A stretch of 54,154 nt of DNA from Candidatus Tayloriibacteriota bacterium (GTDB lineage: Bacteria > Patescibacteriota > Minisyncoccia > Phycocordibacterales > CAIRYW01): the NCBI GenBank assembly GCA_029288615.1, contig JARIGV010000032.1:1-54154 (forward strand), written 5' to 3'. Both the position numbers and the translations under genes were made by a program. How positions within the stretch are numbered: the first letter of the stretch is position 1; each line of letters opens with the position of its first letter. The notes below the pieces were generated by a model, which saw nothing but the letters and a program-made list of their open reading frames with translations, was not told where the DNA came from and ran no database searches. Of this stretch, positions 43,914 to 54,154 are shown in pieces.

Positions 43914-45071
43914 ATGTTCGACTTTCTTCGAAAGAAAAGTAATAAAGATGAAATAGTTTTTACTTTCGTTATTGAAAGTGGAAAAGTGTTATCTGCAATC
44001 ATCTCACATACTCCTGGTAAAAAACCTGAGATTCTTTACACTCACAAAGAATCAATTACATATCAGCAAGATGTAAACCCTGAACGACTTGAAAATCTCA
44101 TGCTTGAGAGCGTGAAGATGTCTGGCGACGTCCTTGCAAGAGAAGGTTATAAAAATATTTCACAAGGCAGCCGCCGAAGGAAAATAGCTGTATTTCTTGG
44201 CTCTCCTTGGTATGCGCCAATTCGAGGTGTTGCAAAAGTCACAAAAGACAAGCCATTTCTTATAAAAGAAAAAATGATTGAGGATACTGTGCGAGAAAAT
44301 TTTTCTTTAAGTCACAAAGATGCGGTCATTATTGAGCAGAAAATAATAACGGTGCGTGGTAATGGATATCGACTCGATAATCCGATCGGCAAAAAGGCGA
44401 GTGCCCTTGATATAGAATTCATTTCAAATGCTTCGTCTAAAAAAATTATTTCAGATATCGAAGAGATGATTCATGTGACGCTTCCTGTGCTTCCAATTAC
44501 ATTTCATACAACCATCTCAAGTATTTTTCCTTCGGCACTAGCAGCAATAAACAAGAAAAATTTCCTTCTTTTTCTTCCTGAGCATGAGATTTCAGATATT
44601 GTTCTTGCAAGAGAAGGGAATTTTGTAGCAAACATCTCAATTCCTTATGGCAAACACGCTCCCGTTCGTGCTATTGCCGCAGCATTCCACACAAGCAAGG
44701 AAGAAGCACACTCACTTCTCATGCTCTATCTTTCAAAAAAACTTGAGACTGAGAAAATGGAGCAAATAGATGAGCTTTTGAAGCTTATTAAGGCAAAATT
44801 TCAGGAAGTTTTGCGTGAAAGTCTCTGGAAACTTTCAACAACCGTCTTTTTACCAAGCGATATTGTAGTAGCTGATGCTCATCCGATTTCAAAACTTCTA
44901 GGCCTTTGGATTCAAACAGAAGAGTTTAGTGAGAAAACACTTACATCAAAAAATTTTGCTGTGCATTTTCTTGAAAATAATGATGTAGAGAAGGCTGTTA
45001 CTGTCCCGCTTGGTGTTACGTATCGAAATCCACTCCTTCTTTCAACAGCTTTGTACAACCAGTCTTTGTAA
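43914..45071 (+). CDS. Hypothetical protein, degenerate FtsA/actin-like fold
   Basis: Beta-rich N-terminus, NGY..DNP.GK segment, SIPYG motif; ATP-binding motifs degenerate. Confidence 0.5.
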   Translation: MFDFLRKKSNKDEIVFTFVIESGKVLSAIISHTPGKKPEILYTHKESITYQQDVNPERLENLMLESVKMSGDVLAREGYKNISQGSRRRKIAVFLGSPWYAPIRGVAKVTKDKPFLIKEKMIEDTVRENFSLSHKDAVIIEQKIITVRGNGYRLDNPIGKKASALDIEFISNASSKKIISDIEEMIHVTLPVLPITFHTTISSIFPSALAAINKKNFLLFLPEHEISDIVLAREGNFVANISIPYGKHAPVRAIAAAFHTSKEEAHSLLMLYLSKKLETEKMEQIDELLKLIKAKFQEVLRESLWKLSTTVFLPSDIVVADAHPISKLLGLWIQTEEFSEKTLTSKNFAVHFLENNDVEKAVTVPLGVTYRNPLLLSTALYNQSL

Positions 45072-50597: not shown

Positions 50598-50601
50598 CAC
50601 C

Positions 50602-50627
50602 AAATCCCTCAATCGAGGGATTTTTTT
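50602..50627 (+). terminator. Intrinsic terminator after rpsI
   Basis: AAATCCCTC-AATC-GAGGGATTT followed by a T run. Confidence 0.8.
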
Positions 50628-50720
50628 ATTGTGCTCCACAAAAAAGGGGCTGTGGAAAGATCACTTCTTGAATTTGCACACTGTTATACAATTAAATAGT
50701 TATCCATTTAATACATTTGT

Positions 50721-51104
50721 ATGTCATTCGAAGAAATACCACAGGAAGGTGTAGAAGAAACTCCGGAGGAAAAGATTGAAAGCATGTTTAAGCCAGAACA
50801 GGTAGAAGCTGATATTGATAACGCCATCGCAGAAATAAAAAAGAAACGCAGTGGTCTATTTCGAAATAGTTTCAAAAGAGAGAACGAAGAAGAGATTATC
50901 GGGGAAATCATGGATGTTATAGCGGAGAAATATAGCATCAATCAAGATATGGTGCTCAACAACACTCCTGAAGTTGATGAGGAGTCAGACGAGGAGGAAA
51001 TAGCGGAACACGCAAGACAAACCATAGAAACAAACAGGGCGACAGATTTTGTACTTACATACACAAACAAAAAGATTGCGGAAGCACTGGAAAAGTATTG
51101 GTAA
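50721..51104 (+). CDS. Acidic hypothetical protein
   Basis: 127-aa Glu-rich ORF between rpsI and grpE. Confidence 0.6.
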   Translation: MSFEEIPQEGVEETPEEKIESMFKPEQVEADIDNAIAEIKKKRSGLFRNSFKRENEEEIIGEIMDVIAEKYSINQDMVLNNTPEVDEESDEEEIAEHARQTIETNRATDFVLTYTNKKIAEALEKYW

Positions 51105-51127
51105 GAAAGAGCCAATGTATTACAAAG

Positions 51128-51159
51128 AAAAAACAGTGGCTTAAAATCTACTGTTTTTT
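51128..51159 (+). terminator. Probable terminator
   Basis: AAAAAACAGTGG...CTACTGTTTTTT inverted repeat. Confidence 0.5.
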
Positions 51160-51201
51160 ATTTCTTGCAATCTCCAAAAAATCTTTTACAATGCACATAC
51201 T

Positions 51202-51789
51202 ATGCAAGATGAAAACTCAAACACACCAATGAATGACGAAGAAAACGATGTAACAATCGACGGAACAGATCTCGATGACAGCGTCGTGTCTGAAGAACAC
51301 GCAGGCGATACAATAAAGAAACTCCGAGAGAAATTAAAGATCGCTGAAAAAGAAAAGATCGAATATCTCACATCTCTTCAGCGCGAACGGGCAGACTTCG
51401 TCAATTTCAAGAAACAGCAGGAAAGCGAAAAGAAGGATCTCATCAAATTTGCTTCAGAACGTCTCGTAGATGATCTCATTCCCGTAATGCAAAACTTCGA
51501 CATGGCTTTCGCAAACAAAGAAGCTTGGGAGAAAGTAGATAAAAACTGGCGCACAGGTGTTGAATACATTTACAACCACCTCAAACAAACACTTGAAGGA
51601 AACGGGCTTACTGAGATTAATCCACTCAATGAAAAATTCGATATCATGCGAGACGAAGCACTCGAGCATGTTCCTGTGGAGTCAAAAGATAAAGACGGTA
51701 TCGTCATTGAAGTTGTACAAAAAGGATATAAACTCAACGGCAAAGTCATCCGCCCAGCGAGAGTGAAAGTAGGGGAGTTTAAGAATTAG
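51202..51789 (+). CDS. grpE: Nucleotide exchange factor GrpE
   Basis: RADFVNFKK, LIPV, EVVQKGY.LNG.VIRPA.VKV. Confidence 0.95.
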   Translation: MQDENSNTPMNDEENDVTIDGTDLDDSVVSEEHAGDTIKKLREKLKIAEKEKIEYLTSLQRERADFVNFKKQQESEKKDLIKFASERLVDDLIPVMQNFDMAFANKEAWEKVDKNWRTGVEYIYNHLKQTLEGNGLTEINPLNEKFDIMRDEALEHVPVESKDKDGIVIEVVQKGYKLNGKVIRPARVKVGEFKN

Positions 51790-51795
51790 ACAGTC

Positions 51796-51823
51796 TTGAA
51801 AAGGCTGAAAAGTTTGGTATAAT
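51796..51823 (+). promoter_or_regulatory. Extended -10 promoter for the leader ORF and dnaK
   Basis: TTGAAA-16nt-TATAAT with TGn extension (TGGTATAAT). Confidence 0.6.
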
Positions 51824-51840
51824 TCTGTTATATTTTTGCA

Positions 51841-52143
51841 ATGCTCACAACACCACGCTCACAATTTGTAGAAAAGATCATCACAAGTCCAGAAGGAATC
51901 GACTTCAAGGTTGTTTTCCTTGTCTACGAAGAAAACGGCAAGGTAAAAGGACACTTCGTCTCTGCGACACCCGTTTCCGCACCAGCCCAAGCAGCAGACG
52001 AGCACATCCTCGCACTTGGCGGAAAGATTGAGAAAAATCTTTTCTTCCAGATCTTCGAGAAAATAGAGAAGAAAGTAATTCCTTCTCCATACTCATCACT
52101 TTTGTATTTCAAAGGAAGCATTCCTCGTGCTCCGGCCTTTTAA
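51841..52143 (+). CDS. Hypothetical 100-aa protein upstream of dnaK, C-terminal RAP motif (candidate arrest peptide)
   Basis: Small beta-rich N-terminal domain, Ala/Pro linker, C-terminus SPYSSLLYFKGSIPRAPAF. Confidence 0.6.
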   Translation: MLTTPRSQFVEKIITSPEGIDFKVVFLVYEENGKVKGHFVSATPVSAPAQAADEHILALGGKIEKNLFFQIFEKIEKKVIPSPYSSLLYFKGSIPRAPAF

Positions 52144-52158
52144 ATAAACCCTAAAAAT

Positions 52159-52185
52159 CTGCAAAGTTTTTCTTTGCGGTTTTTT
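52159..52185 (+). terminator. Terminator/attenuator-like hairpin between the leader ORF and dnaK
   Basis: CTGCAAAG-TTTTT-CTTTGCGG followed by T6. Confidence 0.5.
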
Positions 52186-52228
52186 CGCATGTCTTATTAG
52201 CTCTATTAAATTAATCTCATTCAAATTT

Positions 52229-54121
52229 ATGTCTAAAATAATTGGAATCGACCTCGGAACAACAAACTCTGCGGTCGCAGTGATGGAAGCAGGTGCTCCA
52301 AAGATCCTCGAAAATGCCGAGGGTGCACGCACAACGCCATCTATCGTTGCTGAATCAAAGGGAGGCGAACGACTCGCTGGCCTTCTTGCACGTCGACAGG
52401 CTGTCACAAACCCTACAAACACTATCTTCCAGATCAAACGATTCATCGGCCACACATTCGACGAGCCGGGAGTACAGAAAGATAAAGCATCTGTGCCTTA
52501 CAAAGTTGAGAAATCAGCAAATGGCGGTATCGAAGTAGAAATGGCTGGAAAGAAATATCGACCAGAAGAAATTTCTGCAATGATTCTTCAGAAACTAAAG
52601 GCAGATGCGGAAGCTCGCCTCGGGGAAAAAGTAACAGAAGCTGTGATTACAGTGCCGGCATACTTCAACGACGCACAGCGACAGGCCACAAAAGATGCAG
52701 GAAAGATCGCAGGTCTTGATGTAAAACGAATCATCAACGAGCCAACAGCAGCAGCTCTCGCATACGGATTCAACAAAAAGAAAGATGAAAAAATCGTTGT
52801 GTTCGACTTCGGTGGAGGTACATTTGATATCTCAGTTCTCGAAGTCGGAGATGATGTTGTTGAAGTAAAATCAACAGACGGGGACGCTCACCTTGGAGGT
52901 AAAGATATCGACCAGAAGATCATCGGCTTTCTTGCAGAAGAATTCAAAAAGGAATCTGGTATTGATGTTCGAAGCGACGCACTCGCTCTCCAGCGACTCG
53001 ATGAAGCAGCAGAAAAGGCAAAGATTGAGCTCTCAACAGCAGTACAGACTGAAGTAAACATTCCATTCATCACATCAGATGCTTCAGGACCACGACACCT
53101 CATCATCACTCTCACACGAGCAAAGCTTGAAGAACTCACAGGAGAATTTATCGAACGAGCGATGTCTATCACAAAGCGAGCGATGGAAGCATCACCATTT
53201 AAGATCGGGGATATCAACGAAGTAATCCTCGTTGGAGGACAGACTCGAATGCCAGCTCTCCAGGCTGCAGTAAAAGCATACTTCGGCAAAGAGCCAAACA
53301 TGAGTGTAAACCCAGACGAAGTAGTAGCACTCGGTGCTGCAATCCAGGCTGGAATTCTCGCAGGAGATGTTAAAGATGTACTTCTTCTCGATGTGATCCC
53401 GCTTTCACTCGGCATCGAAACAATGGGATCAGTAGCAACAAAACTTATCGAAAAGAACACAACTATTCCAACATCAAAGTCACAAGTATTCTCAACAGCA
53501 AGTGACAATCAGACATCTGTAGAGATCCACATCGTGCAGGGTGAACGAGCAATGGCGAAAGACAACAAATCTCTCGGCCGATTCATTCTCGATGGTATTC
53601 CACCAGCACCGCGAGGTATCCCACAGGTTGAAGTAACATTCGATGTTGATGCAAACGGAATCCTTAACGTAAAAGCAAAAGACAAATCAACAGGAAAAGA
53701 GCAGTCGATCCGTATCGAAGCAAGCTCAGGTCTTTCAAAAGAAGAGATCGAGAAAATGCAGAAAGATGCTGAGATGCATGCAGAAGAAGATAAGAACAAC
53801 AAAGAAATGGTTGATCTTCGAAACACTGCAGACCAGGCGATCTACACGGCTGAAAAAGCTATCAAAGATAATGGAGATAAAATTCCAGAAGATCTCAAGA
53901 AAAGCATTGAAGAAAAATCAGCAGCCCTCAAGAAAGATAAAGAGGGAACAGATAAGGCAGCACTAGAGAAATCTATCGAGGCGCTTTCAGCTGAGATCTC
54001 AAAGATCGGTGAGATGATGGCAAAGAATGCACAAAACGCAGGACAGCAGACACCTGGAGCAGATCAGAAACCAGAGGAACCAACTCGAGACGCAGAGACG
54101 AAACCCGAGGAAGGAAAATAA
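52229..54121 (+). CDS. dnaK: Chaperone DnaK (Hsp70)
   Basis: [39 protein letters not shown] linker. Confidence 0.98.
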
Positions 54122-54126
54122 AGGAA

Positions 54127-54152
54127 TGCGCCGCCGCCAAGGCGGCGGCGCA
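54127..54152. repeat. GC-rich perfect palindrome after dnaK
   Basis: TGCGCCGCCGCC-AA-GGCGGCGGCGCA; the window ends before any U tract can be seen. Confidence 0.6.
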
Positions 54153-54154
54153 CC

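Follow-up and report, generated by a model that had tools for sequence, protein, structure and literature searches.

A conserved small ORF between grpE and dnaK in one Patescibacteria order as a candidate ApcA-like arrest peptide

Between grpE and dnaK of a Candidatus Tayloriibacteriota bacterium (GenBank assembly GCA_029288615.1, contig JARIGV010000032.1; the whole stretch of 54,154 nt that was analysed is called the window below) lies an open reading frame (ORF) of 100 codons that ends with Arg-Ala-Pro (RAP), two further residues and a stop codon. Sequence comparison shows that this ORF is a genuine gene, conserved within a family that has no annotation, and it is moderately probable that it encodes a cytosolic arrest peptide of the RAP class, similar to ApcA, that tunes dnaK, control in cis included. 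This reading is considered the best one because of the pattern of the motif, selection at the level of the peptide, a spacing rule within the protein and a strict linkage to dnaK. It has to be weighed against a finished protein acting in trans on the DnaK system, a DNA-binding autorepressor, and control of dnaK by RNA structure, and these readings are not fully exclusive of each other. A preliminary description of this DNA had proposed an arrest leader together with an attenuator; the arrest half gains support from the invariance of RAP, while the attenuator half is unsupported in the window.

The ORF family and its C-terminal motif

A search with the single sequence returned full-length homologues of the ORF in 20/61 relatives (E 5e-30 to 2e-3), which is far beyond chance, and the order grpE-ORF-dnaK was confirmed by BLAST in 18 of these 20; at loci L019 and L020 the same slot holds an ORF frame, read from the coordinates of the single-sequence match. 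A profile built from 20 sequences (A1) matched 63/301 genomes sampled within the same order, and in a library with clusters at 50% identity it found 349 representatives, 161 of them at E <= 1e-10; nearly all representatives are 92–116 aa long. From a second database 189 matching proteins were obtained, none with a Pfam domain and the named ones all called "hypothetical protein", with Candidatus Paceibacterota, Parcubacteria and Taylorbacteria as source names. A profile of 123 sequences (A2), run against 401 genomes sampled from the whole phylum, matched this genome and gave beyond it just two marginal matches, at E about 3e-4 and in one case with an internal stop; on these searches the family looks confined to one order. 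The 100-aa ORF itself has no match in Pfam or NCBIfam and no usable one in the ESM Atlas, a profile search of the PDB gave only E > 0.8, and with Foldseek no PDB entry reached E <= 0.001.

In all loci that could be checked the ORF sits directly 5' of dnaK, with spacers of 27–459 nt. Twenty loci were also inspected from genomes that the single-sequence search had missed, and 16 of them held a dnaK start. In 12 of the 16, grpE adjoins dnaK with no family ORF between them, one has an unrelated 112-aa ORF, and three have diverged copies of the family. These three copies, found by position alone, end in ...QQPRAPTFIS, ...QKTRGPNL and ...WLFARPPTK and so carry RAPT, RGPN and RPPT, the R-P-P variant being that of locus L066 (G051:C1). 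At one locus, L093 (G119:C24), the ORF continues for 28 residues past RAP and is followed by a coding-looking stretch in place of dnaK; this locus seems to be interrupted by an insertion.

Conservation of RAP in homologues had been named beforehand as a test of the arrest proposal, and R-[A/G]-P was found 2–8 residues from the C-terminus in 150/150 representatives (among the 150 listed of 349). The number of residues after Pro is two in 50, three in 65 and four in 31 of these, thus 2–4 in 146/150, and the residue directly after Pro is always Ser (90), Ala (23), Thr (20) or Asn (17) and in no case Pro (0/150). Among further homologues the motif fits in 108/109, the exception being protein P0255, which ends in ...NARAQTY and thus has R-A-Q; R[AG]P[STAN] is kept in 258/259 sequences when representatives and further homologues are taken together. 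In an alignment of 123 rows R96 and P98 are invariant, and position 97 is Ala in 117 and Gly in 6. All six Arg, all four Ala and all four Pro codons are used at the motif across 40 loci, which indicates that selection acts on the peptide and not on the RNA. Within this genome no other leader ending in RAP was found among ORFs of at least 60 aa, and nine short ORFs of 31–53 aa end in the RAP way.

This variation can be compared with published mutagenesis. In the text of PMC12992588, ApcA (RAPG) and ApdA and ApdP (RAPP) are described as stalling with Pro, the third residue of the motif, in the P-site; Arg is irreplaceable in all three and Pro is nearly so, a change from Pro to Gly being partly tolerated in ApdP, whereas the change from Ala to Gly is tolerated or even enhancing in ApdA and ApdP, and ApcA stalls efficiently only with the wild-type R-A-P. 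ApcA is an actinobacterial arrest peptide encoded 5' of yidC2 (Sakiyama et al., 2021, PMC7897499), in which, according to the same source, Asn, Thr, Ser, Asp and Ala at the A-site keep wild-type arrest, Pro and Cys enhance it, and Met, Val, Glu, His, Leu, Lys, Ile, Gln, Phe, Tyr, Trp and Arg impair it. ApcA homologues are described there with Gly or Ser at the A-site, and natural upstream ORFs that cluster with ApcA carry RAPS, RAPA, RAPT and RGPT (as given in PMC10987492). RAPP-like words are reported to be under-represented across phyla including Patescibacteria (PMC12992588, Fig. EV2). A family in which Arg is fixed, Ala or Gly follows, Pro is fixed and Ser, Ala, Thr or Asn comes next has the pattern expected of an ApcA-like arrest sequence. 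The RAPA of the window, which had been called a non-canonical variant, is therefore within the tolerance known from ApcA, since Ala is among the A-site residues that keep wild-type arrest (PMC7897499).

Protein architecture and the case for a finished protein

Conservation within the protein falls into three blocks, residues 1–45, 56–60 and 80–100, with a variable stretch between the last two. The C-terminal block reads I-x-S-P-Y/F-x-x-L-x-F-F-x-S-Q-P-T-R-A-P-S-F. AlphaFold2, run with 123 sequences, predicts antiparallel strands at residues 8–15, 21–31 and 34–44 with a pLDDT of about 95, and residues 45–100 at a pLDDT of 66–71 with one helix at 67–77, so that only residues 8–44 are placed confidently. 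The three strands agree with the small beta-rich domain suggested earlier, and the soluble, folded N-terminal part that had been supposed is likewise borne out by this sheet and by the lack of a membrane signal. G19 is invariant and F26 and G33 are nearly so. No clear membrane segment was found: the median of the best 19-residue hydropathy is 1.18, and only 12/252 sequences reach at least 1.6.

From L59 to P98 there are 37–40 residues in 119/123 sequences, with a mode of 38, and the residues in between are not conserved, while the distance from G33 to L59 varies between 18 and 38 residues. F89 and P98 are nine residues apart in 120/123. The ribosome exit tunnel is roughly as long as the spacing of 37–40 residues. 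The conserved block of about 18 residues that ends at the proposed stall site matches the layout of SecM-type monitors, with a fixed ruler of roughly the length of the tunnel and a sensor outside the ribosome.

The main competing explanation is that the ORF encodes a finished small protein that acts in trans on the DnaK system, as co-factor, substrate mimic or titration sensor. The beta domain and the tail (LxFF, QPTRAPS) would then be binding surfaces, and RAP would be invariant through that contact. Several features would suit such a protein: the N-terminal domain is well conserved and its predicted fold is confident, a hydrophobic residue is conserved two positions past Pro, and a terminator-like element, a hairpin with a U-run, parts the ORF from dnaK here and in 18/37 related loci, as for a stand-alone gene. 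Its product could also be made in quantity, as the ORF has a strong promoter of its own and often lacks a leader. Regulators as first genes, e.g., hrcA and ctsR, are moreover the rule in heat-shock operons. On the other hand the tolerated variation at the motif matches the mutagenesis of arrest peptides position by position, the motif lies 2–4 residues from the end in nearly all representatives, the sequence-free spacing of 37–40 residues is hard to explain by a binding surface, AlphaFold2 does not pack the tail onto the domain, and relatives with short spacers pair the tail codons with the dnaK start region in a hairpin. A complex prediction of DnaK residues 384–610 (16-row alignment) with the ORF (123-row alignment) scored 0.24 against a mark of 0.32 and counts neither for nor against this reading. 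A partner acting in trans is unlikely on this evidence and is nevertheless the explanation that deserves most weight after the arrest peptide.

Transcription of the locus and RNA between the ORF and dnaK

The features of the locus are listed in Table 1. The promoter, the ORF with its RAP codons, and the hairpin with its run of six U that follows the stop codon before dnaK were each found where the preliminary description had placed them.

Table 1. Features of the grpE-dnaK region of the window
Feature	Coordinates	Strand	Remarks
grpE (195 aa)	51202..51789	+	Pfam GrpE E 7e-41
sigma-70-type promoter TTGAAA, 16 nt, TGgTATAAT	51796..51823	+	11/12 consensus positions, extended -10
100-aa ORF, unnamed family, candidate arrest-peptide leader of dnaK	51841..52143	+	ends ...SPYSSLLYFKGSIPRAPAF
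residues 8-44, conserved three-stranded beta domain, proposed sensor	51862..51972	+	AlphaFold2 and conservation
residues 56-60, mid-motif (I/V)-L-x-L-P	52006..52020	+	L59 in 112/123 sequences
residues 80-100, C-terminal block I-x-S-P-Y..L.FF.SQPT-RAP-S/A/T/N-F, proposed arrest sequence	52078..52140	+	conservation profile
R96-A97-P98 codons CGT GCT CCG, then GCC TTT TAA	52126..52134	+	Pro98 is the proposed P-site residue
Ala99 codon GCC, proposed A-site codon	52135..52137	+	position with only S/A/T/N in homologues
intrinsic-terminator-like hairpin CTGCAAAG/CTTTGCGG (52159-52179) and T6 (52180-52185)	52159..52185	+	8 bp, 4 G-C pairs, loop 5, dG -8.8
A/T-rich spacer before dnaK	52186..52228	+	no Shine-Dalgarno; best promoter-like match 8/12
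dnaK (630 aa), ATG at 52229	52229..54121	+	77-92% identity to relatives' dnaK

The promoter of the ORF is the best site in 50600–54154. As four promoter-like sites in this region are not above the number in shuffles (5.0 +/- 2.2), it is the strength of the promoter itself that counts. It drives the ORF and probably dnaK as well; no terminator was seen between grpE and this promoter. In 25/38 related loci a perfect TATAAT lies 6–17 nt 5' of the ATG of the ORF, in 20 of these 25 at 6–10 nt. A promoter score of at least 10 is reached upstream of the ORF in 12/38 loci and in the spacer between ORF and dnaK in 0/35; the best match in the spacer of the window, 3' of the hairpin, is TTCGCA, 17 nt, TAAATT (8/12). 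The strong promoter thus belongs to the ORF, and a weak dnaK promoter in the spacer is possible. Some loci differ, e.g., L017, where the ORF lacks a promoter of its own and directly follows grpE. Shine-Dalgarno sequences are hardly used in this genome, with GGAGG in only 10/638 upstream regions. Among hexamers within 40 nt upstream of ORF starts, TATAAT shows the strongest enrichment (75/638, 13-fold), and it often lies 7–10 nt before the ATG (in the window e.g., at 43914, 45102 and, on the minus strand, 27074), and because of this enrichment close to the starts many mRNAs of this genome are probably leaderless. In locus L018 (G048:C34) four tandem copies of TTGAAAAT(T) stand directly 5' of the -10 box, about 60 nt before the ATG of the ORF, and in the window the same place of the promoter holds TGAAAAG twice (51797–51814).

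The absence of the usual heat-shock repressors raises another explanation, namely that the ORF product is a small DNA-binding protein that represses its own gene in place of HrcA, with the beta domain bound to an operator in its own promoter and its activity controlled by the chaperones. HrcA (PF01628) was found in 0/61 genomes (this one and 60 relatives) by a search that was positive in 7/14 named control genomes, and CtsR gave no match; the earlier statement that no CIRCE is visible holds for the whole 788-kb genome, where the pattern has 0 matches with <= 3 mismatches. The only strong promoter is followed first by the ORF, and the weak Foldseek rows, all at E > 0.2, include the beta-sheet nucleic-acid binders PriB and Pur-alpha. 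Yet when 38 promoter regions were aligned at the -10 box no shared operator-like repeat outside the -35 and -10 boxes was seen by eye, no formal motif search being made, some loci such as L017 have no ORF promoter to repress, and the protein has no sequence match in Pfam, NCBIfam or the PDB. As an autorepressor would also leave the invariant RAP and the spacing rule unexplained, this explanation is very improbable. The genome has three genes of the sigma-70 family, which leaves room for an alternative sigma factor.

At the RNA level two types of spacer can be told apart, long ones, to which that of the window belongs, and short ones. In the window, counted from where the Pro98 codon begins, the stem of the hairpin starts at +27 nt (15 nt past the stop codon of the ORF, which is itself 85 nt from the start of dnaK). 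A stalled ribosome protects the mRNA to about +15. The hairpin is therefore outside the reach of a ribosome stalled at RAP, and an attenuator, as had been suggested for this locus, finds no footing here: folds constrained by the ribosome are unchanged and no antiterminator or other alternative pairing was seen at the locus. Terminator-like sites number 10 in the scanned region, where shuffles give 3.5 +/- 1.9, and Rfam gave no match in 50600–52600. In the family of loci to which the window belongs, the U-run lies at a near-constant 49–62 nt before the ATG of dnaK.

The second type has short spacers of 27–75 nt, and 17 such loci were examined. For each of them the pair probabilities that join the 26 nt around the dnaK AUG to the stretch covered by a ribosome at RAP were summed, and the sum was compared with dinucleotide shuffles of the spacer. 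In 11/17 loci (L015, L017, L038, L039, L010, L030, L107, L081, L104, L086 and L099) the observed pairing was reached by <= 2% of the shuffles. The sequences of these hairpins differ between families; in each of them the codons that directly follow RAP form the 5' arm together with the stop codon, and the 3' arm ends 2–10 nt before the dnaK AUG. In a locus outside this list, L003 (G001:C4), a second copy of the last codons and stop of the ORF (AGC TTT TAG C) lies 15 nt further on and forms the 5' arm of the terminator-like hairpin, so that the 3' arm could pair with either of two 5' arms.

Such hairpins could act without the peptide. It is conceivable that they serve as terminators or thermometers which, together with translational coupling, control dnaK, and that the ORF is unrelated and RAP a structural quirk. 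Many loci have a hairpin between the ORF and dnaK; where it hides a start region that lacks a Shine-Dalgarno sequence, heat could melt it, and any ribosome that completes the ORF would open it. Control by RNA alone is improbable all the same, as it gives no reason why R[AG]P[STAN] is kept in nearly every sequence, why selection acts on the peptide or why the family is so strictly linked to dnaK.

Several points weigh against an arrest peptide that controls dnaK in cis. First, the RAP columns were part of the A1 profile, so that the count of 150/150 is somewhat biased; the three copies that were located only by synteny speak against circularity. Second, three loci have 11–28 residues after RAP, the second residue after Pro is Phe, Leu or Ile in 85/104, and the N-terminal domain is conserved in sequence, and both the hydrophobic residue and the domain suggest that the finished protein matters too. 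Third, in the window the folds with the footprint kept unpaired, whether the ribosome is placed at RAP or at the stop codon, leave the hairpin unchanged, and a terminator without a visible antiterminator between leader and target misfits a cis-acting leader. The pairing of tail codons with the dnaK start is here at the level of shuffles (26/60 reach the observed value) and is unconvincing in all 13 loci of the window's own family. Finally, 6/17 short-spacer loci lack a convincing hairpin (L089 with 6/100 and L045 with 18/150 shuffles are borderline, and L007, L105, L106 and L094 show nothing), and where it is present any translating ribosome opens it, which fits plain translational coupling equally well.

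Three further candidates were rejected. In long-spacer loci, a long-range helix joining the tail codons to the dnaK start is treated as an end effect, since it appeared when the RNA was cut at the P-site and persisted neither in wider stretches of RNA nor against shuffles. Rho-dependent control as in tnaC is unlikely, an RNA-binding domain of Rho not being found, and a shared motif before dnaK, ATTCACTAA, occurs in a few loci and is not enriched genome-wide. A separate sequence, ACTATTCACTAA, lies 15–25 nt before the ATG of dnaK in L002 and L009 (also in L006 and L012), which are from different genera, and it is not enriched before the genes of this genome (G000) generally.

Other features flank the locus. 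Between rpsI and grpE there is a 127-aa acidic ORF (50721–51104, plus strand) without a Pfam match above noise, followed 3' by a terminator-like hairpin (51128–51159) and then by a grpE promoter (TTGCAA, 16 nt, TACAAT) that ends 9 nt 5' of the grpE ATG. The contig closes with a 13-bp hairpin with 10 G-C pairs (54121–54154), the stop codon of dnaK being 33 nt from its end. A J domain was found in 58/61 relatives, mostly just 3' of dnaK, and was not found in this assembly (788 kb, 98.8% complete); as the contig ends so soon after dnaK, the absence of dnaJ is probably an assembly gap and not a loss. The idea that the ORF replaces DnaJ was rejected for the same reason, since 58/61 relatives have a J domain.

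A proposed chaperone monitor and its relation to known systems

If the ORF is an arrest peptide, its action may be pictured as follows. With translation at ...SIP-R96-A97-P98 the conserved 18–20 C-terminal residues would be in the exit tunnel, peptidyl-Pro-tRNA would occupy the P-site and the codon for Ala99, a small residue, the A-site, and formation of the peptide bond would stall. The three-stranded N-terminal domain would by then be outside the ribosome, with L-x-L-P, 38 residues back, at the mouth of the tunnel. Folding of the domain, or its capture by DnaK or DnaJ, could then pull on the chain and end the stall, so that the length of the stall would report the folding or chaperone capacity of the cytosol and set the output of dnaK. 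In the 11/17 short-spacer relatives a ribosome at RAP would open the hairpin and free the dnaK start region. Stalling, its release, whether by folding or by DnaK, and its route to dnaK in the window are inferred from the features described above.

It is attractive to take the argument further and to suppose that the ORF is the first natural chaperone-monitoring substrate, i.e., that a soluble domain 38 residues from the peptidyl-transferase centre senses folding or capture by Hsp70 through force, sets dnaK and replaces HrcA/CIRCE in one order of Patescibacteria. This larger proposal is possible and is put forward tentatively. To follow how proteins fold on the ribosome, laboratories employ arrest peptides as artificial force sensors, and a natural force sensor before dnaK would mean that cells apply the same principle to proteostasis. 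In the literature found, the monitoring arrest peptides that have been characterised in bacteria respond to protein export, membrane insertion, metals or small molecules, and none of them senses cytosolic folding or controls a chaperone, so that the ORF may be the first stalling sensor that does the latter. Full-text searches of the literature gave no arrest peptide tied to dnaK or Hsp70 and no description of the ORF family; the main text of PMC10987492 does not mention dnaK, and that of PMC12992588 mentions neither dnaK nor Hsp70 nor GrpE. If true, the proposal would open a first way into the heat-shock control of Patescibacteria, where HrcA was not found in the 61 genomes searched, and the ORF would stand in for HrcA/CIRCE in cells with almost no Shine-Dalgarno sequences and many leaderless mRNAs.

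Among known systems ApcA is the closest. Both are small ORFs of unknown function right before their target, with a C-terminal R-A-P, a few residues and then the stop codon, and with a small residue other than Pro at the A-site, which in the ORF is the proposed one; the Ser, Ala, Thr and Asn of the ORF family are all in the set that ApcA permits. This likeness is one of position, motif and agreement with published mutagenesis. Unlike ApcA, the ORF family lacks a transmembrane-like stretch, its target is a cytosolic chaperone and it belongs to another phylum.

SecM-secA and MifM-yidC2 share other traits with the ORF. The arrest motif of SecM is about 17 residues long and ends in R-A-G-P, and SecM-type spacing, with an aromatic residue about 15, a hydrophobic residue about 9 and Arg 2 positions before the P-site, is met here by Y84, Y/F89 and R96 relative to P98. 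A predicted stem-loop joining the end of the leader to the start of the target is seen in 11/17 short-spacer relatives and was not found in the window. In contrast to both, the sensor of the ORF family is a predicted soluble beta domain and not a signal for export or insertion, the terminator-like hairpin of the window lies 49 nt before dnaK, beyond a stalled ribosome, and there is no Shine-Dalgarno sequence before dnaK to mask. The lack of an N-terminal signal or transmembrane segment sets the ORF apart from the monitors of Sec and YidC in general (SecM, MifM, VemP, ApcA, ApdA/P).

ApdA/ApdP and CruR also have an R-A/G-P core near the C-terminus of a small upstream ORF, and RAPP/RGPP ORFs are known before genes of varied function (as described in PMC12992588 and PMC10951233). 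They differ in that ApdA/ApdP need Pro at the A-site (PMC12992588), a residue that the ORF family has there in 0/150, and in that most RAPP/RGPP peptides carry localisation signals. The trp and pyrBI attenuators resemble the window in the terminator hairpin and U-run after a leader ORF, with the difference that the position of the ribosome here does not change or cover the terminator stem.

The logic proposed for the ORF, in which the availability of chaperones feeds back on chaperone genes, is that of the HrcA/CIRCE, sigma-32 and HspR loops, and the ORF holds the place of the first gene that hrcA has in the order hrcA-grpE-dnaK-dnaJ. Here, however, there is no HrcA, no CIRCE and no recognisable DNA-binding family, and sensing would take place on the ribosome instead of on DNA. 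The arrest mechanism as a class is known from the systems above; what would be new is the soluble sensor, the chaperone as target and the phylum.

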